64,000 bases of DNA from a bacterium (GTDB lineage: Bacteria; Patescibacteriota; Minisyncoccia; UBA6257; GWB1-50-10). The translations under genes and the position numbers were made by a program. Below, in pieces: positions 1 through 57,442 of the stretch; the first letter of the stretch is position 1; the number at the start of each line of letters is the position of its first letter. The stretch spans positions 89,247 to 153,246 of the forward strand of contig JAKAHD010000001.1 of the NCBI GenBank assembly GCA_021815205.1. Reading direction: 5' to 3'. The notes beneath the pieces were generated by a model. It had not been told where the DNA came from and ran no database searches. It saw nothing but the letters and a program-made list of their open reading frames with translations.

Positions 1-2
1 GA

Positions 3-431
3 AAAGATAAGTTCTTACATCTCGCACGGGAAAAAGAAAGAGGGATTGGAATGACAGGGACGCGTATCTATGATGCGTCGGGCCTCGACGATTCGAACAC
101 GACGACCGCGCGCGATATGTTTTTGCTCCTCAAGTATCTCGTAGCGCACCACCCCGATATCTTGAGTTGGACGCGGCTCACGTCGCTTATCGTACAGCCC
201 CTGAATACCGATCGCTCGCACATCGTATCGAACATCGACGCGCTTTCCTCTCGCCCCGATTTTCTTGGGGGGAAGACGGGAACCTCTCCCAAGGCGCAAG
301 AGAATTTCGCGGGTATCTTTTCGTTTCACAACGCGCGGACGGCGCTCGTCATACTCGGTACGCCCGATCGCGTGAAGGAGACGGATAATATGCTCAAGTG
401 GATAAACAGTGCGTACACATTCGGTAATTAA
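3..431 (+). CDS. D-alanyl-D-alanine carboxypeptidase-like serine peptidase (PBP5/S11-like), C-terminal part; 5' end lies outside window
   Basis: Open frame runs to window start. KTG motif (FLGGKTGTS) is followed by AGIFS...ALVILG, typical of serine DD-peptidases. TTARDM...L motif present. Sits next to cell-wall genes. Confidence 0.5.
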   Translation, partial: KDKFLHLAREKERGIGMTGTRIYDASGLDDSNTTTARDMFLLLKYLVAHHPDILSWTRLTSLIVQPLNTDRSHIVSNIDALSSRPDFLGGKTGTSPKAQENFAGIFSFHNARTALVILGTPDRVKETDNMLKWINSAYTFGN

Positions 432-554
432 GTCATTTGCATCCCGCAAAAAGCGGATGCGTAATTGGTAATTAGGTTGTTCGTTCGGTTCATGACGACC
501 TAATTTCCATGAATTACTACCAATTTCTTCGCGGTGGTATAATGTAACAGATCT

Positions 555-1601
555 ATGGCTGTTTTCGCCGCAACCCGTGTCCTTATTATGTTTGCGCTCT
601 CATTCGTGGTGGCGCTTTTTATCACTCCGCTTGTGTTTCGTCTCCTTGATCGTTTCAATCTCCGGAAGAACAACATTCGCGACAAAGAGAGCGCGCCGGT
701 CTTCTACGTGTACCATAAGGATAAGGCGAACACTCCCACGATGGGAGGGATAATTATCTGGGCCACGGTTATCGGGCTCGCGATCATCTTTCTTGTGTTA
801 GGGGGTCTCTTCGACGGATTCGCGAGTTATCTGAACTTCGTGAACCGCTCGGAGACGTATCTTCCGCTTGCGGCGCTCCTCCTCGCCGCGATCGTTGGGC
901 TCGTGGACGACATGATGGGTATTCGCGGGAAGGGGCCTCACGGCGGGGGACTGCGGATGAAGTACAAGATACTTTTGTATACCGCGGTCGCCCTGATCGG
1001 CGCGTGGTGGTTTTATTTCCGCCTCGGATGGAACACGCTCTACGTGCCGTTCGTTGGCACATTCGATATCGGCGGGTGGTACATCCCGTTCTTCCTTTTC
1101 GTGCTCGTCGCGAGCGCTTTTTCCGCGAATGAGACGGACGGACTCGACGGTCTTGCGGGCGGCATCCTCCTCCTCTCTTTCGGAGCCCTCACCGTCGTCT
1201 CGTTCGTATTGCACCGTTATGATCTCGCGGTGATGGAGGCAGCGATCTTAGGATCGCTCCTCGCGTTTCTTTGGTTCAATATTCATCCGGCGAGATTCTT
1301 CATGGGGGACACGGGCTCGATGTCCTTAGGTATCACGCTCGGGATTATCGCGATGCTTACGAACACGGCGCTTTTTCTTCCGTTTTTCGCTTTCGTGCTG
1401 GTGCTCGAATCGACATCCGTGATCATCCAGGTGATGGGGAAAAAATTTCTGAAGCGGAAACTGTTCCACTCGACCCCCATTCACCATCACTTCCAGGCGC
1501 TCGGCTGGCCCGAAAGCCAGATCACGATGCGGTTCTGGATTATCGGCGCCTTAATGACGGTCTTTGGGCTCGTGCTGTTCTTCTTGGCGCATTTCGCGTA
1601 G
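555..1601 (+). CDS. mraY: phospho-N-acetylmuramoyl-pentapeptide transferase
   Basis: 348 aa polytopic membrane protein with NETDGLDGLAGG, MGDTGS and HHHF motifs characteristic of MraY. Extended -10 'tggtataat' lies about 20 nt upstream. Confidence 0.9.
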   Translation: MAVFAATRVLIMFALSFVVALFITPLVFRLLDRFNLRKNNIRDKESAPVFYVYHKDKANTPTMGGIIIWATVIGLAIIFLVLGGLFDGFASYLNFVNRSETYLPLAALLLAAIVGLVDDMMGIRGKGPHGGGLRMKYKILLYTAVALIGAWWFYFRLGWNTLYVPFVGTFDIGGWYIPFFLFVLVASAFSANETDGLDGLAGGILLLSFGALTVVSFVLHRYDLAVMEAAILGSLLAFLWFNIHPARFFMGDTGSMSLGITLGIIAMLTNTALFLPFFAFVLVLESTSVIIQVMGKKFLKRKLFHSTPIHHHFQALGWPESQITMRFWIIGALMTVFGLVLFFLAHFA

Positions 1602-1605
1602 TTAG

Positions 1606-1696
1606 CTACGAAATACGAATTTTGTACGAATATACGAAAACGAATAGAATACATGAAGAATTATTCGTATATTCGTAATCAATTCGTAATTCGTAG
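1606..1696 (+). repeat. hairpin-rich leader repeat (family R3) copy 1, immediately 5' of the amidohydrolase start codon
   Basis: Nested inverted repeats 'ctacgaaatacgaatt...tacgaatatacgaaaa...ttcgtatattcgta...aattcgtaattcgtag', followed by 'agagaaattccATG'. Related copies at 13065-13177 and 57443-57546. Confidence 0.7.
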
Positions 1697-1705
1697 AGAA
1701 ATTCC

Positions 1706-3175
1706 ATGAGTATTCTCATTAAAAATGGAACGGTCTATGACGGCACGGGCGCGCCGCCGCAGAAGATGGATATCTTGATCCGCGAAGCGCGGATCGTCCG
1801 TTGCGGAACGCTCTCCAAGGATAGCGCGGAGACGCTTCTTGACGCGACGGGAGCGATCGTAGCGCCCGGATGTATTGATACGGTGTCCGGCGAAGGAGTG
1901 CACGGCGGTTTTGATCCGGACGCGGATACAAAACTCCTCGAGAAGGGAGTCACAACAATCCTTGGTGGGGTAAGCGGCATTTCTTCCGTCCCGTTCTCTT
2001 CGAGGACGGGATCATTGATGCGGGAGTGGAGCGCGGAGCGGCGTTGGAACGTGCATTGGAACAGCGTGCGAGAGTTTCTCCGCGTGCTCGAGAGGCGCCC
2101 CCATACGCTGAATTTCGGAACGTTCGTCGGTCTCGGGACGCTTCGGAGCGCCTGCGGCGTACCGTATGGAAACGACATGACGTTTCGCGAGCTCGAATCG
2201 GCAACGGCGTTACTGCGCAGGAGTCTTGCGGAAGGAGCCTTCGGCCTTTCAGCCCATCTCTCCATGCCGCATTCCGAGACGATTGCATTTCACGAACTAG
2301 TGCGACTTTTCAAGGTGGTTGCGGAAAAAAAAGGAACAGGTATCCTTGAGGCGCGTTTCCCCGACAAGGGCGCAATTCCGGCGCTCGAAGAGTTTTTCGA
2401 TCTCGCGCGTTCGTCCCATGCGCGCGTCGTCCTCCATAACGCGCAATCGCTCTTCGGAGGGAACGACAAAGAGGAGGCGCTTGCGTTCCTTGAACGCGAG
2501 ACGGCGAACCTCGATGCGTATTTTGATACCGTTCCTTTTCCTTCCCTGCGGCTTCCGCTTACGGCATTTCTGCCCCGGTGGCTCCGCGAAGGGAATCGCG
2601 CGGCAATGGAAGCGGCGATGCGGGAGCGGCACGGAAAAGAACGCCTGCTTGCGCATTTCAAGAACACGATGAAAGGGAAAGGTGAGAAGCTTGTGATCGC
2701 GGATGTGCCGCCCCCGCTCAGTTTTCTTCGCGGTACGACGCTCGCCGCTTTTGCGGAGCACCACGGCGTTTCGCTTCAAAGAGCCCTGTATCTTTTCATG
2801 CGTCTTACGAGATTTCGCGCGCATCTACTCGTACCACAACCGCACACGCGAATCTTCGAGGCATTGCTCGCGAATCCGCATGGAATAGTGACGGGGGATT
2901 TTAAGGCGCTTCTTGCTCGTGCGGCAGACGACGAACGCGTGCCGCTTGAGAAGTGGATAAGGAAGATGACGGGACTGCCCGCGGAGAAGTTTCGTATCCC
3001 GAAGCGGGGAGTCCTCAAAGAGGGGAACTTCGCGGATATCGTGGTGCTCCGCGATGCGAAGCCGGAGACGGTGATCGTGAACGGTGTGCAGACGGTCCGC
3101 GATGGAGTGTCGCTTCACGGCAGGTACGCTGGGCGTGTACTCGCGCGCGAGGCGCAGAGCGGTAACATACAATGA
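1706..3175 (+). CDS. amidohydrolase-family protein (D-aminoacylase-like); metal-binding HxH appears degenerate
   Basis: N-terminus (ILIKNGTVYDGTGAPP...IREARIV...LDATGAIVAPGCIDT) and C-terminus (KEGNFADIVVL) resemble the amidohydrolase/D-aminoacylase fold. The expected 'HxH' is replaced by 'TVSGEG'. Confidence 0.45.
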   Translation: MSILIKNGTVYDGTGAPPQKMDILIREARIVRCGTLSKDSAETLLDATGAIVAPGCIDTVSGEGVHGGFDPDADTKLLEKGVTTILGGVSGISSVPFSSRTGSLMREWSAERRWNVHWNSVREFLRVLERRPHTLNFGTFVGLGTLRSACGVPYGNDMTFRELESATALLRRSLAEGAFGLSAHLSMPHSETIAFHELVRLFKVVAEKKGTGILEARFPDKGAIPALEEFFDLARSSHARVVLHNAQSLFGGNDKEEALAFLERETANLDAYFDTVPFPSLRLPLTAFLPRWLREGNRAAMEAAMRERHGKERLLAHFKNTMKGKGEKLVIADVPPPLSFLRGTTLAAFAEHHGVSLQRALYLFMRLTRFRAHLLVPQPHTRIFEALLANPHGIVTGDFKALLARAADDERVPLEKWIRKMTGLPAEKFRIPKRGVLKEGNFADIVVLRDAKPETVIVNGVQTVRDGVSLHGRYAGRVLAREAQSGNIQ

Positions 3176-4278
3176 ACATGAAATTCAAAGCGCGCAAGGG
3201 GAACCCCGATTACGTATTCATCGCGTTTCTTGTTATCCTCGTCGTGTTCGGGCTCGTGATGCTCATGAGCGCCTCATCCGATCTTGGGAGAGCAAATTTC
3301 GGCGACAGTTTTTATTTTCTGAAACATCAGATCTTCTACGGGCTCATTCCGGGGATCATCGGTTTCTTTTTCGCGTATTTCTTTGAGTATCGGATATGGG
3401 AGAAGATAAGCCTCCCCGCACTGCTCGTGAGTATCCTTTTTCTTCTTCTTGTATTCAGTCCTCTGGGATTTCGCGCCCTGGGCGCCGAACGGTGGGTCTC
3501 GATCGGCGGCATACAGTTCCAGCCCGGCGAGCTTGTGAAACTCACCTTCATCGTGTACATGGCGGCGTGGATGGGAAAGAAAAGAGCGCGGGGGAAAAAA
3601 CTGGGTGAAGGATTCTTGCCGATGCTCATGCTCCTCGGCGCGGTATTGGTGCCGCTTGTGCTGCAGCCCGCGACGACCACGGCGGGCCTTATTTTTGCGT
3701 CCGTGCTCACCATGTACTTTATGAGCGGCGCGCGCGTGAAGTACGTTGCCGCGACGATCGCGCTTGCCGCGGTCGGGTTCGTATCACTCGTTATGATTAC
3801 GCCGTATCGCATGGAGCGTATTTTAGGATTTATTCATCCGCAGGCGGATCCGCTCGGGAAGACCTACCAGATCAATCAGACGCTCATGGCAGTCGGATCG
3901 GGAGGCGTGTGGGGCGTAGGGTACGGCCGTTCGACCACGAAGCTCGGCGCTCTTCCCGAACCGATGGGGGATTCCATCTTCGCCGTGATCGGCGAGGAGC
4001 TCGGTTTCGCGGGATCTATAGCGCTCATCCTTTTCTTTTTACTCTTCGTATGGCGGGCGTTCATAATCGCAAAGAAGACCTCCGACGGCTTCGCGCGGCT
4101 TATGGTTGTGGGATTTGGAACGCTTATCGGCATTCAGGCGTTCGTGCATATCGGCGCGAATACCGGAGTGATTCCGCTTACCGGCGTACCGCTTCCTTTC
4201 ATCAGTTACGGCGGTACGGCGCTTGCGGTTTTTTTGACCATGAGCGGCATTATTGCTACGATTTCGAGAGGAAGATGA
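3172..4278 (+). CDS. ftsW: SEDS-family peptidoglycan glycosyltransferase FtsW
   Basis: 368 aa, about 10 TM helices, FtsW/RodA/SpoVE signature regions (PEPMGDSIFAVIGEELGF, SYGGTA). Position between mraY and murG supports ftsW. Confidence 0.8.
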   Translation: MNMKFKARKGNPDYVFIAFLVILVVFGLVMLMSASSDLGRANFGDSFYFLKHQIFYGLIPGIIGFFFAYFFEYRIWEKISLPALLVSILFLLLVFSPLGFRALGAERWVSIGGIQFQPGELVKLTFIVYMAAWMGKKRARGKKLGEGFLPMLMLLGAVLVPLVLQPATTTAGLIFASVLTMYFMSGARVKYVAATIALAAVGFVSLVMITPYRMERILGFIHPQADPLGKTYQINQTLMAVGSGGVWGVGYGRSTTKLGALPEPMGDSIFAVIGEELGFAGSIALILFFLLFVWRAFIIAKKTSDGFARLMVVGFGTLIGIQAFVHIGANTGVIPLTGVPLPFISYGGTALAVFLTMSGIIATISRGR

Positions 4279-4282
4279 AACG

Positions 4283-4375
4283 AAATCCTAAATTCGAAAT
4301 CCTAAATCCTAAACAAATTCAAAACACGTGTTTCAGTCATTGTGATTTTGTATTTCGGTCATTATTTAGGATTTG
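4283..4375 (+). repeat. MITE-like intergenic element (family R2) copy 1
   Basis: Terminal inverted repeats 'aaatcctaaa...tttaggattt' with internal palindrome 'aaaacacgtgtttc'. A second copy lies at 36346-36522. Confidence 0.6.
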
Positions 4376-4489
4376 GTGTTTGAAATTTGAAATTTTTATT
4401 CAAGTCCAAATGGAGTAATTTTGAAATTTAAAATTAAAAGACATTTAAAATTGATTAAAAATTTAAAATTGTGAATTAAAAATTAATAT

Positions 4490-5620
4490 ATGATAAAAAG
4501 GATTGTGTTAACAGGCGGGGGAAGCGGGGGGCACGTGTTCCCGCTCGTTGCCGTCGCGGAGGAGCTTAAGAAGATCCCCGCGGACCTCGAACTGCATTAT
4601 GTGGGTCCAAAAAGTCCCTTGAACCAGGAGTTTCTGGAGCGAGATATTCCCGTCCGCACCATCTTGGGAAGCAAGATCAGGCGATATCTTTCTTTCGGGA
4701 CTATTGTTGATATTCCGAAATTTTTTATAAGTCTCCTGCAGGCGCTCTTTTACCTCTACCGCATCATGCCGGATGCGGTGTTCTCGAAGGGCGGTACGGG
4801 TGCGTTTCCCGTGGTCTTCGCCGCGTGGTGCTACCGGATTCCCGTTGTGATTCATGAGTCGGATTCGGTTCCTGGTCTCCAGAATCGTCTTTCCGGAACA
4901 TTCGCGAAAAAGATCTGCATCTCATTCTCCGGCGCCGCGGATTATTTTAAGAAAGAGAAGCTTGTGTTCACGGGGAATCCGATTCGTGAAGCGTTGTTGC
5001 ACATGGCAGAAGCGCAGATGCCGCACGAGAAGGTAGCGATCGGGTTCAAGGACGAGGCGCCGCTTCTTTTCATCGTGAGCGGATCGCAGGGCGCCGCGCG
5101 CATCAACCGTTTTCTATTTGATAATTTCGAGCTCCTTCTTCAAGAGTTCCAGATATACCATCAGGTCGGTCCTTCGAATACAGAAGATGCCGAGTTTTTT
5201 GCCGCATCCGCACTGCAATCCTTCGACGAGAACATGAAGCGGCGTTACAAGATGGCGGGGTTTCTTTCGCTTCGCGAAATGCAAGCCGCGTACGCCGCCG
5301 CCGATATCGTGCTTTCGAGGGCGGGCGCGAGTGGCATCTTCGAGATTGCGGCGTTTGGAAAGCCCTCACTACTCATTCCACTCCAAGGATCGGCGAATGA
5401 TCATCAGCGGCTCAATGCGTATGAGTATGCGAAAGGAGGCGCTGCGGTTGTCGTTGAGGAATCGAACCTTACGCCGCACGTCGTTGTGGATCAGGCGGTT
5501 CGTATTCTGAAGGATAAGAACCTTTACGGATCCATGAGTGCGGCCGCGAAGGCGTTCTCGAAGCCCGATGCCGCGAAGATGATTGCGCGGGAGCTTACCA
5601 CACTGCTTCGTCTGGCATAA
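4490..5620 (+). CDS. murG: UDP-N-acetylglucosamine--N-acetylmuramyl-(pentapeptide) pyrophosphoryl-undecaprenol N-acetylglucosamine transferase
   Basis: 376 aa with N-terminal LTGGGSGGHVFPLVAVAEEL G-loop, GT28 architecture, dcw context. Confidence 0.9.
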   Translation: MIKRIVLTGGGSGGHVFPLVAVAEELKKIPADLELHYVGPKSPLNQEFLERDIPVRTILGSKIRRYLSFGTIVDIPKFFISLLQALFYLYRIMPDAVFSKGGTGAFPVVFAAWCYRIPVVIHESDSVPGLQNRLSGTFAKKICISFSGAADYFKKEKLVFTGNPIREALLHMAEAQMPHEKVAIGFKDEAPLLFIVSGSQGAARINRFLFDNFELLLQEFQIYHQVGPSNTEDAEFFAASALQSFDENMKRRYKMAGFLSLREMQAAYAAADIVLSRAGASGIFEIAAFGKPSLLIPLQGSANDHQRLNAYEYAKGGAAVVVEESNLTPHVVVDQAVRILKDKNLYGSMSAAAKAFSKPDAAKMIARELTTLLRLA

Positions 5621-5648
5621 AAGCCGCAGGGTGCCCTATAATAGGAGC

Positions 5649-7058
5649 ATGCCGATACGCGTGCGCTTTGCTCCGTCTCCCACAGGTCCTTTCAGCTTCG
5701 GGAACGCGAGAACGGCGCTTTTTAACTGGCTTTTTGCCCGCCACGAGGGGGGTAAGTTTTTGATTCGCATCGAGGATACGGACAAGGAGCGTTCAGAGAA
5801 AACCCACGAAGCGAATCTCCTTATGACGCTCGAGTGGCTCGGCATCACGCCGGACGAAACGATAGTGCGTCAGAGTGAGCGCGGCGCGGTCTACGAATCG
5901 TATCTTAAGAAACTTCTCGAGGAGAAAAAAGCGTACTATTGCTTCTGTACGCCCGAAGAGCTGGAGGCGGAGCGGCAGGCGCAGTTGAGCCAAGGGCTTC
6001 CTCCGCGCTACCGCGGAACGTGCAGGGCACTCTCGGACGAAGCGATCGCGGAGCGCCTCAAAAAGGGGAGCGGAGTGATCCGTTTCAAGATGCCGGAGAG
6101 TACCGTGTCGTTTCAGGACATAGTGCACGGAAAAGCGTCCTTCGATGGGTCGCTTTTCGGCGACTTCATTATCGCGAAGGGATGCCGCGAACCGCTCTAT
6201 AATTTCGCGGTTGTTGTGGACGACTACGAGATGAAGATCACGCATGTGATCCGCGGCGACGATCATTTTTCGAATACACCGAAGCAGATCGCGATTCAAG
6301 ACGCCCTCGGATTTCCGCACGTGCATTACGCACACCTTCCGCTTATTTTGGGGAGTGACCATAAGAAACTCTCGAAGCGCTATCTTGAAACCTCGATCTA
6401 CGAATATAAGGAAAAAGGATACCTCGCCTCCGCGGTCGTGAACTTCCTCGCGCTCTTGGGGTGGCACCCCGAAGAGGATCGCGAGGTGTTGACCATCGAA
6501 GATCTTGTAAGGGAGTTCGATCTGAGACGCGTGCAAAAATCGGGAGGCGTGTTCAATCCCGAAAAACTCGAGTGGCTGAACGCGCAACACATAAAGAGGA
6601 TGCCGACGCCCGCGCTCGCGGAGCTTGTGGCGCCCTTTATTTCCGAATCCTGGCGGGCGAACGGAGAGATGCTCCTTCGCGTGGTGAACGTCGAGAAGGA
6701 GCGCTTGAAGCATCTCTCGGATCTCCCGATGCTCGCGGGATTCTTTTTCGAGCTTCCGGAATACGACGCGAAGCTTCTTATCTGGAACAGCACGCCGCCC
6801 GCCGCGATTCTCGACAATCTGCATTTTACGCTGGATGTGATGCAAGAGATTCCTCCTTCCGAGTTTGAGAAGGGCACGATTGAACAGTATGTCATGACGG
6901 TTGCCGAGAAGCGCGGCAGGGGAGAGGTCTTGTGGCCCCTGAGAGTCGCACTTTCGGGGAAAGAAAGTTCGCCCGGCCCATTTGAGATTATGGAAGTGTT
7001 AGGTAAGGAAGAGTCATTGAGAAGAATTGAGCGTGCGATTCAAAAAATGGAAGCGTGA
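5649..7058 (+). CDS. gltX: glutamyl-tRNA synthetase
   Basis: Start moved to the ATG giving MPIRVRFAPSPTGPFSFGNARTALFNW (class I HIGH region). KLSKR (KMSKS) motif and C-terminal anticodon-binding region are present. Confidence 0.9.
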   Translation: MPIRVRFAPSPTGPFSFGNARTALFNWLFARHEGGKFLIRIEDTDKERSEKTHEANLLMTLEWLGITPDETIVRQSERGAVYESYLKKLLEEKKAYYCFCTPEELEAERQAQLSQGLPPRYRGTCRALSDEAIAERLKKGSGVIRFKMPESTVSFQDIVHGKASFDGSLFGDFIIAKGCREPLYNFAVVVDDYEMKITHVIRGDDHFSNTPKQIAIQDALGFPHVHYAHLPLILGSDHKKLSKRYLETSIYEYKEKGYLASAVVNFLALLGWHPEEDREVLTIEDLVREFDLRRVQKSGGVFNPEKLEWLNAQHIKRMPTPALAELVAPFISESWRANGEMLLRVVNVEKERLKHLSDLPMLAGFFFELPEYDAKLLIWNSTPPAAILDNLHFTLDVMQEIPPSEFEKGTIEQYVMTVAEKRGRGEVLWPLRVALSGKESSPGPFEIMEVLGKEESLRRIERAIQKMEA

Positions 7059-7175
7059 AAATCCTTCGTATGCGGGAGCAAGGGCACGGGTCCCGGCGTG
7101 AATCTCTTGTGCACAGTCATTGCGTGCATTGATTCCGGGCAGTGCTACAGTATATACAGGGAGAACAAACGGCGT

Positions 7176-7598
7176 ATGAGAAAAATTACTCTTATTCTGC
7201 TTGTTGCCTCGTTTTTCATCCCGCTTATAGGGAGCGCGCAACAGGCGCAGACCGTGCAGAACGCGCAGGGGATTCAAAACTTGAATCCAAGCGCCCTCGT
7301 ACCGGTTCAGGATCTTATGAATCTTCTTAATAAGGCAAAGAGCTATGTGCCGCTTCTGAACGTTGCACAGGGCCGGCACACCGTTCAGGCGCCCGCACCT
7401 GCCGCCATCCCTTCTATCGCCGCATTTGATCTTTCAACGCTTACCAATGCGTGGAGTTCGGCGAACGCATGGTCCGAGGCGAATCTCGGAGTGAGTCTTA
7501 CGAGCATCGCGACCACCGTAATGAACTTTATGATGTGGATATGGGGACTCGTGTGGAAGCTCCTTCAATTTGGGTTGTCGCATATTCAATTCACGTAA
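7176..7598 (+). CDS. hypothetical secreted protein with C-terminal hydrophobic segment
   Basis: Start at the internal ATG gives signal peptide MRKITLILLVASFFIPLIGSAQQ. Q/N/A-rich sequence follows, and a hydrophobic tail MNFMMWIWGLVWKLL. Confidence 0.4.
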   Translation: MRKITLILLVASFFIPLIGSAQQAQTVQNAQGIQNLNPSALVPVQDLMNLLNKAKSYVPLLNVAQGRHTVQAPAPAAIPSIAAFDLSTLTNAWSSANAWSEANLGVSLTSIATTVMNFMMWIWGLVWKLLQFGLSHIQFT

Positions 7599-7788
7599 GG
7601 AATATGAAGAAGATAATTCTTCTTTCTCTAATCCTCGTCTTCCTTTTGGATGGCAACATTTGACGATGGAAATGGAAACACTGCGAGATGTTACGTAAGC
7701 TGGCCTGGATATACTGGACACGCAAGAACATCATTCTATCACGTGGGAGATATAATAGGATCAACAACTACAGTTCCAAAATTCTAAT

Positions 7789-8135
7789 ATGCTTTGGTTT
7801 CTCGCAATAATCGCGGTGGGAATGTTGTTATTAAGTAATCCGAAAAACAGTATTTCTTCACTTGCTCAAGCAGAACGCTCTGTTGGGAAAATTATTCTTA
7901 TAATAACTATAGGATTACCTCTTTTAGTTATCCCTCTTTATTTCATTGCCCCTTCTTTGTTTTACTAATGATAGCGCGTCTTCTTCTTTCATTCGGGATA
8001 TTTGCACTTATCACTTATATAGGATATAAGCGCGGGAAACCTGTCTCGTATAAAGAGTATGCGATATTCATGCTCGCGCTTTTGTGTGCGCTTACGGTTT
8101 TTGTGGCTTCTCTTGCACTCCTCGGATGGTGGTAG
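7789..8135 (+). CDS. two tandem small hydrophobic ORFs (59 aa and about 55 aa, the second starting at the first's stop 'TAATG')
   Basis: Read directly: MLWFLAIIAVGMLLLSNPKN...FIAPSLFY* and MIARLLLSFGIFALITYIGYKRGKP...LALLGWW*. Both are below the 60-aa ORF track cutoff. Each has two predicted TM helices. Confidence 0.2.
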
Positions 8136-8150
8136 TTTCTAAAAGTTTAG

Positions 8151-8270
8151 GAAGGGGAGGGTGTTATGACGCGTCATAACACCCCTTAGTAGACCCCCAC
8201 ACCTATACTAGGTTGTGGTGGTAAACCAGTGCCATTAAGATTATTAGTCTACCAATGGCGTATATAAGAG
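8151..8270. repeat. intergenic conserved element (family R1) copy A, containing a perfect 24-bp palindrome GGTGTTATGACGCGTCATAACACC
   Basis: Palindrome at 8159-8182 followed by 'cccacacctatactaggttgtggtggtaaaccagtgccattaagattattagtctacc'. The same about 110-bp element, with a 100-bp insertion, occurs at 48408-48600. Confidence 0.7.
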
Positions 8271-8312
8271 TTGCGGATGTTGCATTGCAAGATTGAATTT
8301 GCGGTATTTTTA

Positions 8313-8347
8313 TTTGACAATTTAGTGTAAGAGTTGTTACTATATTT
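8313..8347 (+). promoter_or_regulatory. candidate sigma70-type promoter for the 8394 gene
   Basis: TTGACA at 8313, then a 17-18 nt spacer and TACTAT. GGAGGA Shine-Dalgarno lies 4 nt before the ATG at 8394. Confidence 0.4.
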
Positions 8348-8393
8348 CTCAAGTTTTAGTTTGCATTTTTAAAAATAAACCCATGGAGGATGT

Positions 8394-8783
8394 ATGGGAT
8401 CCCGAACAAAAAAGCGGTTGGTGCTATTATTGTTAATAATACTAGTTGCCGTAAGCGAAGTAATATTGGCCATAAGAACCATATGGCATGTAAGCTGGTG
8501 TACAGAAATATTTTCCGTGGCCTATAGCACGATAATGTTTATAATCGGGGTTGTGTCATGGATGCTTGTGGCGTCGCATTATTGGTTAGGACAATACAAG
8601 TGTATTGATCGTATGAGGTTTTTTACTGTGTTACTGGTAATCATCGCGATAGTGCTCAGCAGTACAGGAAGGATACTGCCATTTTATGTGGCTTTGGTAC
8701 TCAACGCGCTTTTATGGATAATTTTTTCCATAAAGTTCTTTTTTGAGCTTGTATGGAATTCCAGGGGAGATTGGAGCAAATAG
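8394..8783 (+). CDS. hypothetical 4-TM membrane protein
   Basis: 129 aa, four hydrophobic helices, good RBS. No recognisable family. Confidence 0.5.
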   Translation: MGSRTKKRLVLLLLIILVAVSEVILAIRTIWHVSWCTEIFSVAYSTIMFIIGVVSWMLVASHYWLGQYKCIDRMRFFTVLLVIIAIVLSSTGRILPFYVALVLNALLWIIFSIKFFFELVWNSRGDWSK

Positions 8784-9011
8784 TTTTAGCCCGGTTCTTA
8801 ATTGTAAGGGACCGGGCACATTATTTTCTGGATTAAGAAGTCCACGAGATTCAACCTCCTTGCGCCAGTATCATTATGTCGGGAAATGTACCTTGTGCGA
8901 CAGATACAGATACCTCTAGGCCGCGCTTCTTTTCAACTCCCCCGCATCGTTCATGAGCAGTGTACGCAACCACTTCGCTTTTTTCGTTTCTTCTGCGATA
9001 ATACGAAAGAT

Positions 9012-10418
9012 ATGCGCGTCCATCCCCATACTCCTGTATTTGGAGACGTATCGAAAGACAGGTCCGTACACTTTGTCGGTATCGGAGGTATTGGCGTAAG
9101 TTCACTCGCCCGTTGGTTTCTCGCTCAAAAATGGGCTGTTTCTGGCTCTGATATCGTGAAGGGTGAAATTACCAAGGATCTCGAAAAACAGGGCTTAAAA
9201 GTCAAAATAGGGCATAAGAAGGGCAATATAGGCCCAAAAACGGGTCTTGTGGTGTATAGTAACGCCATAAGAAGCGACAACCCAGAGGTTATTGAGGCAA
9301 GGCGTCGGGGCATTCCCACGCTCTCCTATCCCGAGGCATTGGGGGCGCTCACCAGGGAGTATACGGCAATTACCGTCTCCGGCGCTCACGGGAAGAGTAC
9401 AACAACGTCGCTTCTTTCGCTTGTGCTTATCAAGGCGGGAATGGATCCGACGGTCATTGTGGGAACGAAGCTTAAAGAGTTCGTTCCGCCCGCTCGTGGA
9501 AGTAATTTCCGATTCGGCAAGAGCGAGTATCTTGTGCTCGAGGCCGACGAATGGAAGGCAGCGTTCCTCCACTACTCCCCTTCTCTTGCCATTATTACAA
9601 ACATCGATAAGGAACATTTGGATTTCTATAAAAACCTTTCGAATATAAAGAAAACGTTTCTGCGATTCATTGGAAACGTGCGGTCGGGCGGCGTGCTTGT
9701 CGTGAATCGCGATAGTAAGGAGCTTTACGGATTGCGCCCGCGCATCATGAAGATCGCGAGGGCGCATCGCCTGAAGGTTATGTGGTATTCGGTCGCCGGC
9801 TCCCCCACCGCTTTTACGCGGAAGGTAAGAGCGAATTTCTCGATTCCCGGGGCGCACAATATTTCAAATGCATGTGCGGTGTATACGCTCGCGCATCATC
9901 TGAAGATCAGAGATGAGGTTATTTTTTCCGCGTTAAAGCGTTATCGCGGCGCATGGCGCCGTTTTGAATATCGCGGTGTATTAAAAATTTCAAATTTCAA
10001 ATTAAAAATTTATGATGATTACGCGCACCACCCGACGGAGATCAAGGTGACGCTCCAGGCATTCAGGGAGAAATTTCCCAAATCACATCTTATCTGCGTC
10101 TTCGAGCCGCATCAGGCGAAGCGGCTGAGGTCGCTCTTTAGAGAGTTCGCTGGCGCGTTCAAGGGCGCGGATACGTTGATCCTTCTTCCCATTTATAGAG
10201 TGGCGGGGCGCGACAGAATCAATCCCCGCTATACCTCGGAGGCGCTCGCGAAAAAGATAAAGGGAGCAACGTATCTCCATAATAAAAAAAATTTACTGCA
10301 TGCGATTCGCGCTGTCATATCTAAAAATTTCAAATTTCAAATTTCAAATTACGTCGTGATCATGATGGGTGCCGGCACCATCGTCGAGGAAACGGACAAG
10401 CTTTTGCGAAACGAATGA
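9012..10418 (+). CDS. murC: UDP-N-acetylmuramate--L-alanine ligase
   Basis: Start moved to MRVHPHTP... before VHFVGIGGIGVSSLARW. GAHGKSTTTS P-loop, DDYAHHPTE and Mur ligase C-terminal domain are present. Two in-frame AT-rich 'aaatttcaaattt' microsatellite insertions at about 9975-10020 and 10325-10350. Confidence 0.85.
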   Translation: MRVHPHTPVFGDVSKDRSVHFVGIGGIGVSSLARWFLAQKWAVSGSDIVKGEITKDLEKQGLKVKIGHKKGNIGPKTGLVVYSNAIRSDNPEVIEARRRGIPTLSYPEALGALTREYTAITVSGAHGKSTTTSLLSLVLIKAGMDPTVIVGTKLKEFVPPARGSNFRFGKSEYLVLEADEWKAAFLHYSPSLAIITNIDKEHLDFYKNLSNIKKTFLRFIGNVRSGGVLVVNRDSKELYGLRPRIMKIARAHRLKVMWYSVAGSPTAFTRKVRANFSIPGAHNISNACAVYTLAHHLKIRDEVIFSALKRYRGAWRRFEYRGVLKISNFKLKIYDDYAHHPTEIKVTLQAFREKFPKSHLICVFEPHQAKRLRSLFREFAGAFKGADTLILLPIYRVAGRDRINPRYTSEALAKKIKGATYLHNKKNLLHAIRAVISKNFKFQISNYVVIMMGAGTIVEETDKLLRNE

Positions 10419-10494
10419 CTAATATCTAATTGCTCTAATTTCTAATGTGGCGTTTAGGTTAATTAGGAATTAGGTTAATTGGAAATTTGAACAG

Positions 10495-11259
10495 ATGAAC
10501 ACCTTTTCCACTCCCGAGGAGTTCAAGGAAACCTGCGGTTACGAGATCGACGGTTTCTGGTATCCGCGCGTGACAAAAATCGTCGAGATCAAGGCGAAGC
10601 CGGCGCTCTACCGCTTTTATGCGGCCTTAAAGAACTTCGACGAGGGGGAGCGGATCAAACAGAACTCCGCCGAGGAGGGCACCTTAATCCACGAGACAGT
10701 GGAGGCACTGCTTCTTGGAGAACGTCCTCTCATCCCCCCCTCCGTCGATTCTTCCATCAAGGCGTTTCTTGAGTTTGCGGAGAAGACGCATATCCGCGTC
10801 GAGAAAGAGTTCGTCGAGCGGCGGCTTGTGAACTTCGAAGAGCGCTACGCGGGTACGCTTGATGCAATCGCCTTGATCGACGGCAAGGTGGGAATCTTGG
10901 ATATCAAGACCTCGCAGGAAATCTATCGCGACTATAATCTCCAGACCTCCGCATATGTCGCCGCGATGAAGGACATCGTGCCGGAGCTCGAGACGAGGTG
11001 GATCCTGCGGATCGATCAAATGCGGCACTGCGACCGGTGCGGGAGCATCCTGCGGAGCAAGGGCGGAAGGGATAAGGTGCGCCTCAATTGGCGGAATTAC
11101 AACTCGAAAACATGTATGCACGAGTGGGGACCGCTTGAGGGGGAGGTAGAGTTTAAAGAGTTCCCCGCGTGGCACGACGACTACCACGCCTTCCTCGGCG
11201 CGAAGAAGTTATGGGAATGGGAGCACGCCGATTGGCTGAAGAAGGTGGGGTACCTTTAG
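10495..11259 (+). CDS. PD-(D/E)XK nuclease superfamily protein (RecB/Cas4-like fold) with four cysteines
   Basis: Motifs GTLDAIALIDGKVGILDIKTSQ (D...D-x-K) and QTSAY (QhxxY) typical of RecB-family nucleases. One N-terminal Cys (ETCGYE) plus C-terminal HCDRCG...C. No CRISPR array nearby. Confidence 0.55.
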   Translation: MNTFSTPEEFKETCGYEIDGFWYPRVTKIVEIKAKPALYRFYAALKNFDEGERIKQNSAEEGTLIHETVEALLLGERPLIPPSVDSSIKAFLEFAEKTHIRVEKEFVERRLVNFEERYAGTLDAIALIDGKVGILDIKTSQEIYRDYNLQTSAYVAAMKDIVPELETRWILRIDQMRHCDRCGSILRSKGGRDKVRLNWRNYNSKTCMHEWGPLEGEVEFKEFPAWHDDYHAFLGAKKLWEWEHADWLKKVGYL

Positions 11260-11336
11260 AGGTCATGGTGTAGCAATATTGAAGCCGTGCGAATCTTTGA
11301 TTCGCACGGCTTTGTTTCGTTAAAAACTTCTCCTTC

Positions 11337-11756
11337 TTATGAAAAGAAAGCAATAAGAATAATAAGAAGAAATATGAGGAGTACCCCCACCATCGTGGGC
11401 AAACGCCTCATTCTCCGCTCATGAGAGAGTTTCTTTAATGCGGCTTTTTTCTCGAGATCACTCTGCATTTGTCCTCCTCGAATTGCTCCGAGAAAAAGAA
11501 AGAGCGACTCGATGAGCCATAGCAATATGATGTCCATCGGTGTGAAGTCCACCATCTTTCCTATTATGATGATGGATATCCCCAATGAACAGGCAACCGC
11601 AATCAGTCCGCCGACGCGCACGCCGCCTCTTCTTAGGAAAGATCCAATTAAGAAGAGGATATACGACACAAATATCCCGATCCCCAAAACACTCCAGTTT
11701 TCCATAACCCACCTCCTTATGTTATTTTGAAGTTTCTTTGTATTTTGTAGTATCAC
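11337..11756 (-). CDS. hypothetical membrane protein (3-4 TM)
   Basis: 139 aa hydrophobic ORF. No family recognised. Confidence 0.4.
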   Translation of the reverse strand: MILQNTKKLQNNIRRWVMENWSVLGIGIFVSYILFLIGSFLRRGGVRVGGLIAVACSLGISIIIIGKMVDFTPMDIILLWLIESLFLFLGAIRGGQMQSDLEKKAALKKLSHERRMRRLPTMVGVLLIFLLIILIAFFS

Positions 11757-12000
11757 AATCTTTGCCTCGCGGTCAATAGTACCCGATACGTTAAGGACTG
11801 TGCGTCTCGATTATGATCGGCGTCTGGTTTTTCTCCTGTCCTACCAGAAAACCGACCCCAAAGCTTGCGAGGACGAGGAGCGCGAGCCCACCCCAGAAGA
11901 GAATCCATAGGCGGCGGTATTTTGCCCACTGTACGATATTCTTAATTATTGACATATTTTTGATTGTTCTATACTATTATACAAAAGTCTAAGGTGTTAT

Positions 12001-12100
12001 CCCGCAGCTATTTTACTATTCGACTCGTATCTCTGTGGGAGGATAGTGGTAAATATCTAACCGAGGAGCGGGTTCGAATCTACAGTAAAATAGTGCGGGA
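12001..12100 (+). ncRNA. candidate structured RNA/leader upstream of rpmA (unclassified)
   Basis: A 16-bp closing helix (cccgca-g-ctattttact / agtaaaatag-tgcggg) encloses about 65 nt with internal attcga/tcgaat pairing and a tRNA T-loop-like GGGTTCGAATC. The 11964-12197 ORF looks spurious. Class not determined. Confidence 0.25.
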
Positions 12101-12160
12101 CGCTCATGATTGTAACGAAATTTTTTCGCTCACAATCGTGAGCTTAAAATTTCGACAATC

Positions 12161-12445
12161 ATGGCGCATACTAAAGCGAAAGGATCAACTAAGTTAGGAC
12201 GAGAATCAGAGTCCAAACGGCTTGGCGTGAAGCTTTTTGACGGTGAGACGGCGAAACCGGGCGATATCCTAATCCGGCAACGCGGCACAAAGTACTACCC
12301 CGGTGTGAACGTGCGCCGCGGCGGCGATGACACGCTCTACGCGGTACAGCACGGTACGGTAAAGTTTACGAAGAAGAAGAAAGAGAATTTCAACGGTTCT
12401 ACGAGAAAAGTGAGTGTGGTGAACGTCCTCGAAAAAACCTCCTAA
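12161..12445 (+). CDS. rpmA: 50S ribosomal protein L27
   Basis: [24 protein letters not shown]...[11 protein letters not shown] matches the L27 family almost motif-for-motif. Confidence 0.92.
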
Positions 12446-12469
12446 TTATCGGGAGGTTTTCTTTTATTC
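12437..12469 (+). terminator. rho-independent terminator after rpmA (possibly bidirectional)
   Basis: Stem cctcc/ggagg with 9-nt loop, flanked by aaaaaa upstream and ttttcttttatt downstream. A second 13-bp perfect hairpin (ccaaatgaaaatg/cattttcatttgg) lies at 12485-12515. Confidence 0.55.
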
Positions 12470-12618
12470 CGACGAGCGAGAGAGCCAAATGAAAATGGAT
12501 ACATTTTCATTTGGGCCGAGCGATGTCGGAACAAAGGTTGAATACCTCGCGGCGTGCCGCGAGGGCGGACGAGCGAAGCGAGTTCCGCGAATACCGCGGG
12601 GCTTGCCCCGCGGAACCT

Positions 12619-13056
12619 TTATTCCGGTTCGACTTGGATATTAATCTCGGTTCGTACGCCTTCGCCGAAGTTGATGGCGACCGGATGAGTGCCGAGTGTT
12701 TTGATCGGCCGATCGAGCTCCGCATGTGCGTTTAAAATCCCCCGCTCCCCGAGCTTTTTCTCGATGTCATTCTTCGTGACCGAGCCGAATACGGATTCGT
12801 GCGCTCCCGTCTTTACCGTAAAGGAGAATGTTTTTCCCTGGATTGTCTTCGCTTGCTCCTGGAGTTTCGATAGAAGCGCATGATGCGCCGCTTCGTGTTC
12901 CGCTCTCTGCCTTTCGAGCTTTACGAGCGCATCTTTCGTCGCGGGTATCGCAAGTTTTTTCGGGATGAGGGCGTTCCTCGCATAGCCGTCCGAGACGTGC
13001 TTCACCTCGGATTTTTTCCCGACACCGCGGACATCCCGAAGGAGAATGACTTGCAT
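12619..13056 (-). CDS. rplI: 50S ribosomal protein L9
   Basis: MQVILLRDVRGVGKKSEVKHVSDGYARNALIPKKLAIPATK matches the L9 N-domain. 145 aa. Confidence 0.9.
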   Translation of the reverse strand: MQVILLRDVRGVGKKSEVKHVSDGYARNALIPKKLAIPATKDALVKLERQRAEHEAAHHALLSKLQEQAKTIQGKTFSFTVKTGAHESVFGSVTKNDIEKKLGERGILNAHAELDRPIKTLGTHPVAINFGEGVRTEINIQVEPE

Positions 13057-13064
13057 GTATTTCT

Positions 13065-13177
13065 CTACGAATTACGAATTGAGTACGAATATACGAAAAC
13101 GAAGAGATTTTTCACTGCGTTCAGAATGACACAAAAGGTACAAATTCGTATATTCGTAAGTCATTCGTATTTCGTAG
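13065..13177 (-). repeat. hairpin-rich leader repeat (family R3) copy 2, 8 nt upstream of the rplI start codon
   Basis: Read in gene orientation: 'gctacgaaatacgaat...tacgaatatacgaa...ttcgtatattcgta...aattcgtaattcgtagagaaatacATG'. Confidence 0.7.
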
Positions 13178-14395
13178 CTATTTCGCCATCTCTTGCTTAA
13201 TGATCTCTATCGCCTTATCGTACTGGGGATCTTTTCCTTCTTTTGTATTCTGATCCGTAATTGGCACTTGTATGTCGGGCTGAAGCCCAATCTTATTAAT
13301 GGTATGTCCGTCTGGTGTGAGCCATTCGGCGATCGAGACCTTCAAGGATGATCCGTCTTTCAGTGTTTGCACCTCCTGCACACTCCCCTTCCCGAACGTT
13401 TTTTCTCCAATGAGTTTGATGCTCCGATCGTCGCGAAGCGCTCCCGAGAGAATCTCGGAGGCAGACGCCGAACCTCCGTCAATAAGAACCACGACCGGCA
13501 TGTGCGTGAGCGCCGCATTCCCATTCGCCCGAAGGATGTTCTCGTCTCCCGAACGGAGCTTCTCCTTCACAACCACGTCTCCTCTCGGCAGGAACCATCC
13601 CGCGATATCCGTTGCTACCTCAAGGAAACCTCCCGGATCGCCTCGGAGATCAAGTACCACCCCGCGCGCTCCCTGGAGCAGCGCCGAGAGCGCCGCTTCG
13701 TAGAAGAGCGATGAGGCGTTCGCGCTGAAGTTATAGAGTTGAATGTAGGCGATGTTGCCGTTTACCATCTTCCAGTCAAGTGTCGGAATATGGATGGTCT
13801 TGCGGGTAATGTCGAATTCTTTCGCCGCCTTCCATCCGTTCCGCATAACCATAAGTTTCACCTTAGTGTCAATTGGGCCTCGGATGAGATTCACCGCTTC
13901 GTCTACACTCAAGTCGCTCGTTACGATCGTGTCGTCAATCTTCAGGATCTGATCGCCCGTCTTGAGCCCCGCCTTTTCCGCAGGATTCCCCTTGATGGGA
14001 GCAATCACCGTGAGTTGATTGTTTCGTATACCGATCTCGGCGCCGATACCTCCGAAGCTGCCGCTCAGATCTTCGTTGAATTTTTTCGCGTTGCTCGGCG
14101 TGAAGAACACGGTGTACGGATCGCCCGTTGACTGCACCGCTCCTTTGATCGCGCCGTACACGATGTCCTGATCGCTTATTTTATGTATCCCATAGTAATT
14201 ATCCTTCAGTGCTTTCACCGCATCCCAGAACAAGGAGAAGTCGGCGTTCTGCAGTAAGCTGTTTTGAACCCCGTTCGTTGCCGTCGATGCGGCGTCCTTC
14301 ACGGAACCGATCTTGTACCCGCCGTAGAACGTAGCGGCCAGAAGGATGATTGCAACGCCGATCGCGGCGATTCTTTTCCTTGAGAAAAAACCCAT
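13178..14395 (-). CDS. ctp: carboxy-terminal processing protease (peptidase S41)
   Basis: Signal anchor, PDZ region (GGIGAEIGI...KGNPAEKAGLKTGDQILKIDD), S41 catalytic region (VLIDGGSASASEILSGAL...GEKTFGKGSVQ). Confidence 0.85.
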   Translation of the reverse strand: MGFFSRKRIAAIGVAIILLAATFYGGYKIGSVKDAASTATNGVQNSLLQNADFSLFWDAVKALKDNYYGIHKISDQDIVYGAIKGAVQSTGDPYTVFFTPSNAKKFNEDLSGSFGGIGAEIGIRNNQLTVIAPIKGNPAEKAGLKTGDQILKIDDTIVTSDLSVDEAVNLIRGPIDTKVKLMVMRNGWKAAKEFDITRKTIHIPTLDWKMVNGNIAYIQLYNFSANASSLFYEAALSALLQGARGVVLDLRGDPGGFLEVATDIAGWFLPRGDVVVKEKLRSGDENILRANGNAALTHMPVVVLIDGGSASASEILSGALRDDRSIKLIGEKTFGKGSVQEVQTLKDGSSLKVSIAEWLTPDGHTINKIGLQPDIQVPITDQNTKEGKDPQYDKAIEIIKQEMAK

Positions 14396-14520
14396 ACGTC
14401 TATTTAAGAGGAAATCGAGTGAAAAGGCAATTACGATTCTCTGTTGGCATTTTACGATAGTTTAACATAGAATATGAAGGTGAGAGCTTGAGTAATTAGG
14501 CGGTAACTAGGTTGTAATTA

Positions 14521-14625
14521 ACGGTAATTACGTTGTTCGTGCAATGAATTTCTACTTCATTTCTACTTCATTTCTACTTCATTTCTACTTAATTACTACT
14601 TAATTACTACTTCATTTCCATTAAT
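14521..14625. repeat. tandem microsatellite repeats
   Basis: 'catttctactt' x4 then 'aattactactt' x2, preceded by 'taattaggcgg/taactaggttg/taattaacgg/taattacgttg' iterations. Confidence 0.8.
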
Positions 14626-14653
14626 TACTCAATGTTGTTCAAATTTTCTTCAT

Positions 14654-14950
14654 ATGTCAGGGAAAAACACCGCAGATGGAAAGAGTGAAAATTACCTCGC
14701 CTCTCTGAAGCGGCGGGGAAAAGAAAGCCACGTATACAGGAGATATCAGATGACGGGCTTGATGCTCTCCGAGATCTTGCATGATAGTGCCCACAAGGCG
14801 CTCTATATCAAGCTTGCGAAAGAGCACAATGAAGAGAAGCTTCTACGGCTTGCAAAGGATATCGCGGAGAAAAAGAACGTGAGAAACAAAGGAGCGTATT
14901 TTATGAGGGTATGGTTCGATGGAGAGAAAAATTCTGCGCATCACCAATAA
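14654..14950 (+). CDS. hypothetical protein
   Basis: 98 aa ORF overlapping the def start by 32 nt. Basic/charged, no family recognised. Confidence 0.3.
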   Translation: MSGKNTADGKSENYLASLKRRGKESHVYRRYQMTGLMLSEILHDSAHKALYIKLAKEHNEEKLLRLAKDIAEKKNVRNKGAYFMRVWFDGEKNSAHHQ

Positions 14951-15419: not shown

Positions 15420-15519
15420 TTTTTAATTTACAATTTTAAATGAATCAATTTTTAAAAATTAAAACATTACTACATTGAGTATTGAATGAAAATTTCAAAT
15501 TAAAAATTTAAGAATTAAA

Positions 15520-57434: not shown

Positions 57435-57442
57435 GTATTTCT

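Follow-up and report, generated by a model that had tools for sequence, protein, structure and literature searches.

Why the same hairpin-forming sequence of about 100 nucleotides (nt) stands directly before the start codons of three unrelated genes is the question raised by a 64,000-nt stretch of a Patescibacteriota genome (assembly GCA_021815205.1, contig JAKAHD010000001.1, positions 89,247 to 153,246), hereafter the window. A first-pass annotation of these letters had regarded the sequence as a portable 5' leader, either a cis-regulatory RNA or a mobile promoter cassette. We favor a different answer, to which we give a probability of roughly 0.6: the sequence belongs to a dispersed family of short, non-autonomous foldback inserts, resembling miniature inverted-repeat transposable elements (MITEs) or REPINs, and its leader role is a by-product of a tolerated selfish insert. 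It is called the TACGAA element below.

Three copies of the element were found in the window, at 1605-1705 on the plus strand and at 13057-13178 and 57435-57549 on the minus strand. These are essentially the positions annotated before, with the correction that the conserved unit begins at the G at 1605 and that the tail to 1705 is part of it. The 22-mer AATTCGTAATTCGTAGAGAAAT, which comprises the outer box and the tail, occurred three times in the window with no more than one mismatch and not once in 100 dinucleotide-preserving shuffles. When an nhmmer profile of the arm was run against the 64 kb, only the six arms of the three copies were recovered and no further copy. Each copy is an inverted repeat with 33-nt arms, located at 1606-1638/1664-1696 in copy 1 (88% complementary, 25-nt loop), 13065-13097/13145-13177 in copy 2 (85%, 47-nt loop) and 57443-57475/57516-57548 in copy 3 (82%, 40-nt loop). 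The long stems described just before start codons are thus real, and they end 8-9 nt from the ATGs at 1706, 13056, and 57434.

Read in gene orientation, the consensus consists of G-CTACGAAATACGAAT, a linker of 3-5 nt and (TA)CGAATATACGAA before the loop, followed after the loop by TTCGTATATTCGTA, a 3-nt linker, AATTCGTA(A/C)TTCGTAG, the tail AGAAAT(T/A)C(C) and the ATG. The arm is composed of direct repeats of the TACGAA hexamer, spaced by 8, 11, and 7 nt, with no internal dyad. It contains two boxes, the outer CTACGAA-N-TACGAAT and the inner TACGAATATACGAA, between which lies a short non-complementary linker. Copy 1 starts 4 nt past the mraY stop codon (TAG, 1599-1601). Its left arm (1605-1638, plus strand) carries the G and the outer box CTACGAAATACGAAT, a TTTTG linker and the inner box TACGAATATACGAA; the unconserved 25-nt loop (1639-1663), the right arm TTCGTATATTCGTA-ATC-AATTCGTAATTCGTAG (1664-1696) and the polar tail AGAAATTCC (1697-1705) follow on the same strand. 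This tail is unpaired in the predicted fold and abuts the ATG of an amidohydrolase-like gene (1706-3175). On the minus strand, the left arm of copy 2 (13145-13178) abuts or overlaps the stop codon of an S41 peptidase gene (TAG, 13178-13180) with its G+CTAC end. Its loop (13098-13144), right arm (13065-13097) and tail AGAAATAC (13057-13064) lead up to the rplI start codon (13054-13056), which the tail abuts. Copy 3, also on the minus strand, has a left arm with a degenerate inner box CGCGAATATACGAA (57516-57549), a loop at 57476-57515, a right arm with C at the variable position N (57443-57475) and the tail AGAAATAC (57435-57442), which abuts the ATG of a GT4 glycosyltransferase gene (57432-57434).

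All three sites are within operon-like clusters. Site 1 lies between MraY and a protein with a weak Amidohydro_3 match, 5' of FtsW and MurG; site 2 lies between an S41 (CtpB-like) peptidase and ribosomal protein L9; site 3 separates two successive GT4 glycosyltransferases. The downstream genes are unrelated, in agreement with the first-pass annotation, and its suspicion of spurious YEYTKT reading frames was also justified: TACGAATATACGAAAACG translates to YEYTKT, and the open reading frames (ORFs) 1271-1678, 12880-13200, and 57252-57548 cross the elements. In the annotation of metagenomes, arms of this kind give rise to false ORFs and misplaced start codons.

The corresponding junctions in relatives, obtained through homologue look-ups, were compared with those of the window; a metagenome scan based on ribosomal protein L9 had yielded one distant relative only. 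Loci from other genomes are numbered L001 onward. At the mraY junction, the stop and start codons overlap in L128 (ATGA, in gcATGAgt; ttcgcATGAgtattctc) and are 18 nt apart in L129. The junction of the S41 peptidase gene and rplI reads ggaaaaTAGaATGcaagtc in L120, whose L9 protein is 69% identical, leaving a 1-nt spacer (TAGaATG), and in the window reads TAG, element, AGAAATAC, and ATGcaagtc. The two GT4 genes are separated by 11-13 nt in L124, L125, and L126, for example by catcgaactgtcaATG, and by 262 nt in the window, of which the final 115 nt are the element with its tail. The motif AGAAATWC was absent from the relatives' empty sites at all three junctions, indicating that the tail came in with the insert and that the ATG is the native start. 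Comparison of filled and empty junctions at the sequence level shows that the copies are insertions into formerly tight stop/start junctions inside operons.

The rest of the 262-nt spacer, 5' of copy 3 (57550-57696, minus strand), is extra inserted DNA that is missing in the relatives; within these 147 nt there is a GC-rich hairpin of the ACCYCCACACC type (ACCTCCACACC...TGTGGGGGGGT). An orthologous element is present between the S41 peptidase gene and rplI in L119 (L9 72% identical). Its loop can still be aligned with the 47-nt loop of copy 2, a small GC hairpin sits inside it, and the outer stem shows one compensatory change, from A-T to G-C. The arm family was not found in the close relatives L125 and L126, in 2 x 21 kb (42 kb examined).

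Species-representative genomes were searched with the exact single arm TTCGTATATTCG-N4-8-ATTCGTANTTCGTAG, a pattern that itself demands TATATT, and more than 116 loci in other genomes matched. Among the matches listed, ~87 loci were labelled as Patescibacteria lineages, including Moranbacteria, Uhrbacteria, Falkowbacteria, Nealsonbacteria, Staskawiczbacteria, Terrybacteria, Wolfebacteria, Doudnabacteria, Levyibacteriota, and 'Saccharibacteria', and 8 as Bacteroidota. The homologues of the window genes likewise carry Patescibacteria/Parcubacteria names in their sources. Four of the six Bacteroidota-labelled loci that were sampled had Bacteroidota-type or clearly non-Patescibacteria content, namely a type IX secretion system (T9SS) sorting domain, a SusC-like barrel, a complex I subunit and a ThuA/GSDH/PKD protein. 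Other labels, among them Gammaproteobacteria, Bdellovibrionales, and Bathyarchaeia, are unconfirmed, one of the loci in question (L018) being near-identical to a Patescibacteria contig (L063). Viral contigs gave 0 exact arm matches, and phage as the vehicle was set aside on this result.

The anatomy of the family was derived from 124 elements. About half were hairpin pairs (~57) and half solo arms (~60), nearly all intergenic. Elements were 52-150 nt long and had loops of about 0 to 80 nt without a conserved core; copies are dispersed among housekeeping genes at about 1 per 20 kb. One copy of 68 nt in a metagenome-assembled genome (MAG), L070, is almost loopless and lies between rpsQ and rplN within a ribosomal-protein operon. 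In an alignment of 51 hairpin stems, 91.5% of cells were paired and the TACGAA boxes were almost invariant. Covariation was confined to the free outer-box position N (U-A 18, A-U 16, C-G 3) and to two terminal pairs outside CTAC/GTAG, at which G-C, U-A, C-G, and A-U were all found; the linker between the boxes was non-complementary across the family. Every genome had a subfamily of its own, distinguished by spacing, tail, and terminal bases. An arm contained from 4 to 6 hexamer units (L027/L057), and the units of one arm can change in concert, as with TACAAA four times in L046 and TACCAA three times in L098. Loops were common to different loci of one genome (L008 = L113, 18/18; L058 and L088, 20/21, the latter two elements being in opposite orientation relative to genes) and nearly so to two genomes (L016 and L050), and symmetrical subfamilies were found in both orientations. 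The shared loops, the genome-specific subfamilies and the patchy presence in relatives point to copy-and-paste spread with horizontal movement. A protein probably recognizes the boxes, to judge from how strictly they are conserved next to freely varying linkers and loops.

To describe placement, we used crude ORF and gene calls. By these calls, 59 of the 136 arms had their outer end 0-21 nt before a start codon (mode 4-8), and 25 arms faced an oncoming gene whose stop codon was 0-12 nt away. Hairpin pairs were in tandem spacers in 38 cases, divergent in 8 and convergent in 2. Counted by spacer, elements were present in 61 tandem, 11 divergent and 4 convergent spacers, against a background of 492, 70, and 102 from an independent crude gene call, indicating that the element is rarer in convergent spacers (Fisher p = 0.015 for convergent vs the rest, 0.027 for divergent vs convergent). 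A tail starting with AGA followed 24 of the 59 start-adjacent arms and only 3 of the 25 stop-adjacent ones. Arms ending in TTCGTAGAGAAA, from at least 10 genomes, had an ATG 2-5 nt later in 13 of 16 cases; these ATG-abutting GTAGAGAAA arms (13/16) precede unrelated genes, including rpmJ, rplI, and those of glycosyltransferases. Judged by eye, asymmetric hairpins had their AG end toward a start codon in 10 cases and toward a stop codon in 1-2. What is established, then, is a polar tail that forms part of the insert, a set of conserved boxes and an ability to fold. Random orientation and distance relative to genes, which the first-pass annotation had named as the observation that would speak against a leader, was not seen for this subfamily. 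The term 'portable leader' is therefore partly right, in that the empty junctions of relatives, which lack the tail, make the element portable and polar within this subfamily; the dedicated cis-regulator is unsupported.

Solo arms of 33-42 nt were also found in frame inside the coding genes of MiaB (L063 703-736, L018 1636-1669), a FemAB-like protein (L037, arm 2122-2154) and MurD (L094 5315-5348), where they encode segments such as TNYEFNTNIRITN. The MiaB arm of L063/L018 encodes PTNYEFNTNIRITN and lies in a loop that exceeds its counterpart in the solved MiaB structure 7mjv by 7 residues. The CTACGAA strand is open in all three reading frames, so that copies within genes can be tolerated.

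Several observations weigh against a selfish foldback insert. No transposase or recombinase linked to the element was found between or beside the arms in the loci examined, nor among the window ORFs. Specifically, there was no RAYT, integrase, or transposase among the 20 large window ORFs (Pfam) or among proteins recurring near elements in 116 loci; the recurrent neighbors were ordinary housekeeping genes, and their largest cluster (12 loci) mixes proteins of DnaK length with shorter relatives of ~340 aa. A target-site duplication was also lacking: no flanking direct repeat of at least 3 nt exceeded expectation, and the flanks pair with each other instead, so that mobility is read from distribution only. 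The left flank showed no conserved tetranucleotide of the kind that IS200/IS605 elements target. Furthermore, the tail always abuts the ATG without any leftover native spacer, which is hard to obtain by random insertion followed by selection and may reflect start-codon targeting or another mechanism. The same junctions hold unrelated hairpin families in relatives, which could mean that a function is selected there, for instance RNA processing or internal promotion of transcription. Stem mismatches on the sense strand were G.U in 59 cases vs A.C in 53, and with no G.U excess there is no sign that selection acts on the RNA and not on the DNA palindrome. Finally, the placement statistics inherit the crudeness of the gene calls.

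A bolder version of the insertion model can also be drawn up. The element would then be a self-contained 'stop-hairpin-start' cassette targeted to start codons and moved by an iteron-binding enzyme common to Patescibacteria and Bacteroidota. It would rewire operons at recurrent junctions, by uncoupling translation or by supplying an internal promoter, and its arm could be written in frame into proteins. In both of these phyla, translation mostly starts without Shine-Dalgarno pairing. We offer this version tentatively, as a possibility that falls well short of even odds.

Whether the hairpin acts as a regulatory RNA was assessed from its predicted fold and conservation. The RNA folds of copies 1, 2, and 3 had energies of -37.9, -40.0, and -38.1 kcal/mol (z = -5.8, -3.9, and -4.2 vs shuffles), and the tail and the AUG were unpaired in all three. 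A stable hairpin at a fixed distance of 8-10 nt from start codons, covarying stem positions, and the presence of one copy before groES and one before dnaK would suit a riboswitch, an RNA thermometer or a protein-binding attenuator governing a regulon. However, the loops vary from nothing to tens of nucleotides around no common core, the AUG and the tail are not sequestered, and the fold offers neither a terminator/anti-terminator alternative nor a U-tract. None of the three copies was called as an intrinsic terminator in a scan of positions 1-16000; the AT-rich stem is followed by AGAAAT. A covariance-model search of the window with Rfam, a type of check that the first-pass annotation had proposed, matched no family to the element at the gathering or at permissive thresholds, the only sub-threshold hit being a plant miRNA model (E = 0.51). 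Conservation is limited to the arms, sense-strand G.U bias is absent, the downstream genes are functionally unrelated, solo, stop-facing and in-frame coding arms exist, and relatives manage without the element at the corresponding junctions. A dedicated cis-regulatory leader is very improbable on this evidence, which already refutes it, if weakly. Riboswitch, thermometer, and attenuator were rejected as specific candidates because of the unconserved loop, the exposed AUG and the lack of a U-tract. A steady association with heat-shock genes was not found either, as the genes of the DnaK cluster took various positions relative to the arms.

The other half of the original proposal, a mobile promoter, is the main rival, and it is compatible both with mobility of the element and with the insert reading itself. 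Each arm would carry an outward promoter, giving a new transcript with a leader of ~25 nt and uncoupling the gene from its operon. The inner box of every arm presents TATATT outward, a 5/6 match to the -10 hexamer; this hexamer was required by the search pattern, however, and its conservation is not independent evidence. A consensus scan gave promoter-like pairs in both arms of copy 2, but no -35-like signal was present at any spacing 5' of TATATT in 134 arms, which speaks against a sigma-70-type promoter with its -35 and -10 hexamers 16-18 nt apart. The distribution argues in both directions. Divergent spacers contain the element whereas convergent ones have it less often than the background predicts, and in relatives fillers recur at the same junctions within operons. 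In L046, the 110-nt spacer between the divergent yraN-like and smpB genes consists of the element and two short tails, so the promoters of these genes must lie in the element or in coding DNA, which makes some promoter activity plausible. On the other side, the element of an Uhrbacteria MAG (L080) is part of a 5' untranslated region that already existed, since it follows the CIRCE operator (TTAGCACTC-N9-GTGCTAA) and precedes the start codon of groES, and the L070 copy between rpsQ and rplN is internal to a ribosomal-protein operon. In addition, 25 arms face stop codons, some arms are inside genes, and the native layout differs, many genes having TATAAT just 4-12 nt before the ATG. We regard a mobile promoter as unlikely to be the main explanation.

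The near-invariant boxes amid free linkers and loops are also what protein contacts would produce, and with 4 to 6 hexamer units per arm (L027/L057) the TACGAA repeats could form an operator array for a global regulator or nucleoid protein, the copies marking a regulon rather than insertions. Convergence cannot explain why arms match exactly over 33 nt at sites that are not orthologous, in many genomes of two phyla, however, and whole elements are duplicated with their loops, copies occur inside coding genes, and no stand-alone boxes were seen elsewhere in the window. An operator array is accordingly very improbable; a box-binding protein is still likely, but in the role of moving the element or maintaining it. 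The concerted change of units within an arm (L046, L098) and the presence of hairpins made of other 7-8-nt units at many other window junctions would, in turn, fit a local mutational by-product, in which AT-rich junction DNA expands in situ by slippage and inverted duplication without movement between sites. Such a process cannot yield the same 33-mer and tail at three unrelated window sites or at more than 116 elsewhere, nor identical loops at different loci. It is contradicted for the TACGAA family, for which we consider it barely credible, and may contribute to the turnover of the other families.

If the element is a tolerated foldback insert, its effect on expression could be as follows. 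The insert would be co-transcribed with its neighbors and would fold back to form a hairpin of about -38 kcal/mol, which would insulate it from pairing with the flanking message. The hairpin would bring the upstream stop codon and the downstream AUG to the foot of one stem. The A-rich tail of 8-9 nt, AGAAAUWC(C), brought by the element, would stay single-stranded and could serve as a new initiation region for the displaced downstream gene after its stop/start coupling is lost, in a host poor in Shine-Dalgarno sequences. The element would thereby become a 'portable intercistronic leader' through being a tolerated selfish insert and not a dedicated regulator, and a protein that recognizes the TACGAA boxes would be its mover. 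By analogy with the NEMIS elements of Neisseria, cleavage by RNase III is possible.

The host context was examined in the window genes. A Shine-Dalgarno core preceded 3 of the 36 genes with an ATG start, which is below random expectation, and positions -12 to -3 were A/T-rich. TATAAT or TACAAT occurred 4-12 nt before the ATG of several native genes, such as 39035-42568, 43816-44262, 51414-51722, and 555-1601. The few Shine-Dalgarno cores together with the close TATAAT point to a host that relies on Shine-Dalgarno-independent initiation and whose leaders are often short or absent; read as promoter elements, these hexamers suggest leaderless or very short-leader mRNAs.

The element was compared with known repeat systems. 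REP and BIME sequences, and REPINs (REP doublets that form hairpins and are moved by RAYT), are said to have been characterized by Nunvar in 2010, by Bertels and Rainey in 2011 and by Ton-Hoang in 2012. Like them, the TACGAA family consists of short extragenic inverted doublets of about 70-120 nt that form hairpins, with many decayed singlets, no target-site duplication, genome-specific subfamilies and GTAG/CTAC ends. In contrast, the single TACGAA arm is a direct hexamer repeat and not itself an imperfect palindrome of 20-40 nt. GTAG/CTAC is near-invariant as the outermost pairs at the 3' end of the arm, whereas REP has GT[AG]G 5' of the hairpin foot. No RAYT (Y1 HUH) was found in the proteins surveyed above, namely the 20 large window ORFs and those recurring near elements in 116 loci. 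Moreover, REPs are species-specific and prefer the 3' ends of genes, whereas the TACGAA core is common to several classes and even phyla, and the element prefers gene-start spacers and carries a putative initiation tail at one end. As regards MITEs, the terminal inverted repeats (33-nt arms), small size (52-150 nt) and many copies (>116 loci) agree, and the target-site duplication is absent; a parent insertion sequence was not apparent, with no transposase beside or between the arms in the loci examined and 0 matches in viral contigs.

The best functional analogy is with Correia/NEMIS elements of Neisseria and ERIC sequences of enterobacteria, which are palindromic inserts of 100-150 nt inside transcription units, near or overlapping stop and start codons. 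These inserts are co-transcribed and fold into long hairpins, which in NEMIS are substrates of RNase III; the ends of NEMIS reportedly also contain promoters that face outward. The sequences are unrelated, and Correia elements duplicate a TA target whereas the TACGAA element shows no such duplication; Correia and ERIC elements also have a conserved internal sequence and a host range of one genus or family, unlike the unconserved TACGAA loop. Rickettsia palindromic elements (RPE) form a small palindromic family that is likewise found in frame in genes, where it adds a surface-loop peptide. Only solo TACGAA arms of 33-42 nt are in genes, however, most copies are intergenic, and sequences and hosts are unrelated to RPE. 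Eukaryotic foldback (FB) elements share the long inverted arms made of short tandem sub-repeats, the varied loops and the variable number of units; they are much larger, some contain ORFs and they have no relation to gene starts, so the likeness is architectural only.

Integron attC sites and the folded attP of CTX phage are also hairpins with two paired boxes per arm, an unpaired spacer and a variable loop, and attC likewise follows a stop codon without a gap, with the next gene starting shortly behind it. The TACGAA ends (CTACGAA...TTCGTAG) lack the RYYYAAC/GTTRRRY core, though, and there are no cassette arrays and no nearby integrase; the flanks are core housekeeping genes, and empty sites lack the element alone rather than a gene with its site. 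An attC identity was rejected for the missing core motif and array context. Putative mobile promoters, reportedly defined by Nijveen, Matus-Garcia, and van Passel in 2012 through sequence reuse alone, have in common with our family that one upstream sequence precedes unrelated genes within and between genomes. The TACGAA unit differs in being a palindrome that also abuts stop codons, and its promoter activity is putative. TIGR arrays, which are tandem arrays beside a Nop-domain Tas gene with dual spacers and box C/D motifs (PMC12045711), were ruled out, since TACGAA elements are single and dispersed at housekeeping junctions, without box C/D.

Nothing relevant came from a full-text literature search on the element sequences and on repeats of the MITE type in the Candidate Phyla Radiation, nor from one on Patescibacteria promoters or leaderless mRNAs. 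The TACGAA element is apparently undescribed so far and appears to be the first repeat family of its kind described for Patescibacteria; a core common to many classes and to genuine Bacteroidota is unusual. To our knowledge, the non-coding DNA, expression signals, and mobile elements of Patescibacteria, a large share of bacterial diversity, are almost uncharted. The family suggests that tightly packed, translationally coupled operons can take an insert of 100 nt when the insert supplies its own initiation context. AGAAAUWC-AUG behind a hairpin provides a concrete sequence for probing Shine-Dalgarno-independent initiation, and the arms could be used as strain-typing markers and as a handle toward the protein that recognizes TACGAA boxes.

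Other junctions of the window contain AT-rich hairpins whose arms are tandem 7-8-nt units (AAATCCT, AAATTTC, CTAATTT/TTAGGTTAA, GTAATTA), at 4279-4489, 36348-36560, 59614-59747, 60420-60512, 15420-15519, 10419-10494, 450-554, and 14492-14629. Two of these segments, 4379-4497 and 59629-59747, share 88% identity along 119 nt and both lie directly 5' of a start codon in the same orientation, a likeness that points to a second 'portable upstream cassette' family. At the junctions ftsW|murG, TP-methylase|Bac_transf, and S41|rplI, relatives have other unit-hairpin families or nothing; such fillers are located at L121 1659-1767, L126 8138-8253, L127 5103-5209, and L128 5105-5212. Either these junctions are hit repeatedly or their fillers turn over fast. 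Hairpins of TCAAT units are present at two sites in the GCA_900218215 genome. Among the hairpin families of the window, TACGAA is the one with cross-lineage sequence conservation. The 11-nt tandem repeat ATTTCTACTTC (6.5 copies, 14548-14618) lies in the spacer from which the S41 peptidase gene and the gene at 14654 diverge, and forms the right arm of a GTAATTA-type hairpin.

GC-rich hairpins of the form ACCYCCACACC...GGTGTGGRGGT occur in several spacers (19065-19095, 28700-28737, 57609-57658, and also 37560-37583), without a T-run after them. The GC hairpin ccgccagaggcgg is found both in the loop of the L119 element (300-320) and in an unrelated unit-hairpin at the same junction of L121/L122 (L121 1688-1716), and may be a further tiny mobile hairpin. 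Two long intergenic regions of 795 and 479 nt share, at 8158-8253 and 48407-48590, a perfect 29-nt palindrome, AGGGTGTTATGACGCGTCATAACACCC, and an 87%-identical block of 61 nt beginning ACCCYCACRCCTATACTAGGTTGTGG, with no Rfam match; they could represent an unannotated structured RNA or another repeat. The LepA (EF4) protein encoded at 51829-54138 on the minus strand is 769 aa long, and residues 88-200, within its GTPase region, form an inserted PD-(D/E)XK_3 nuclease domain. LepA has 607-608 aa in the relatives L125 and L126. The extra domain may be a mobile nuclease-domain insertion.

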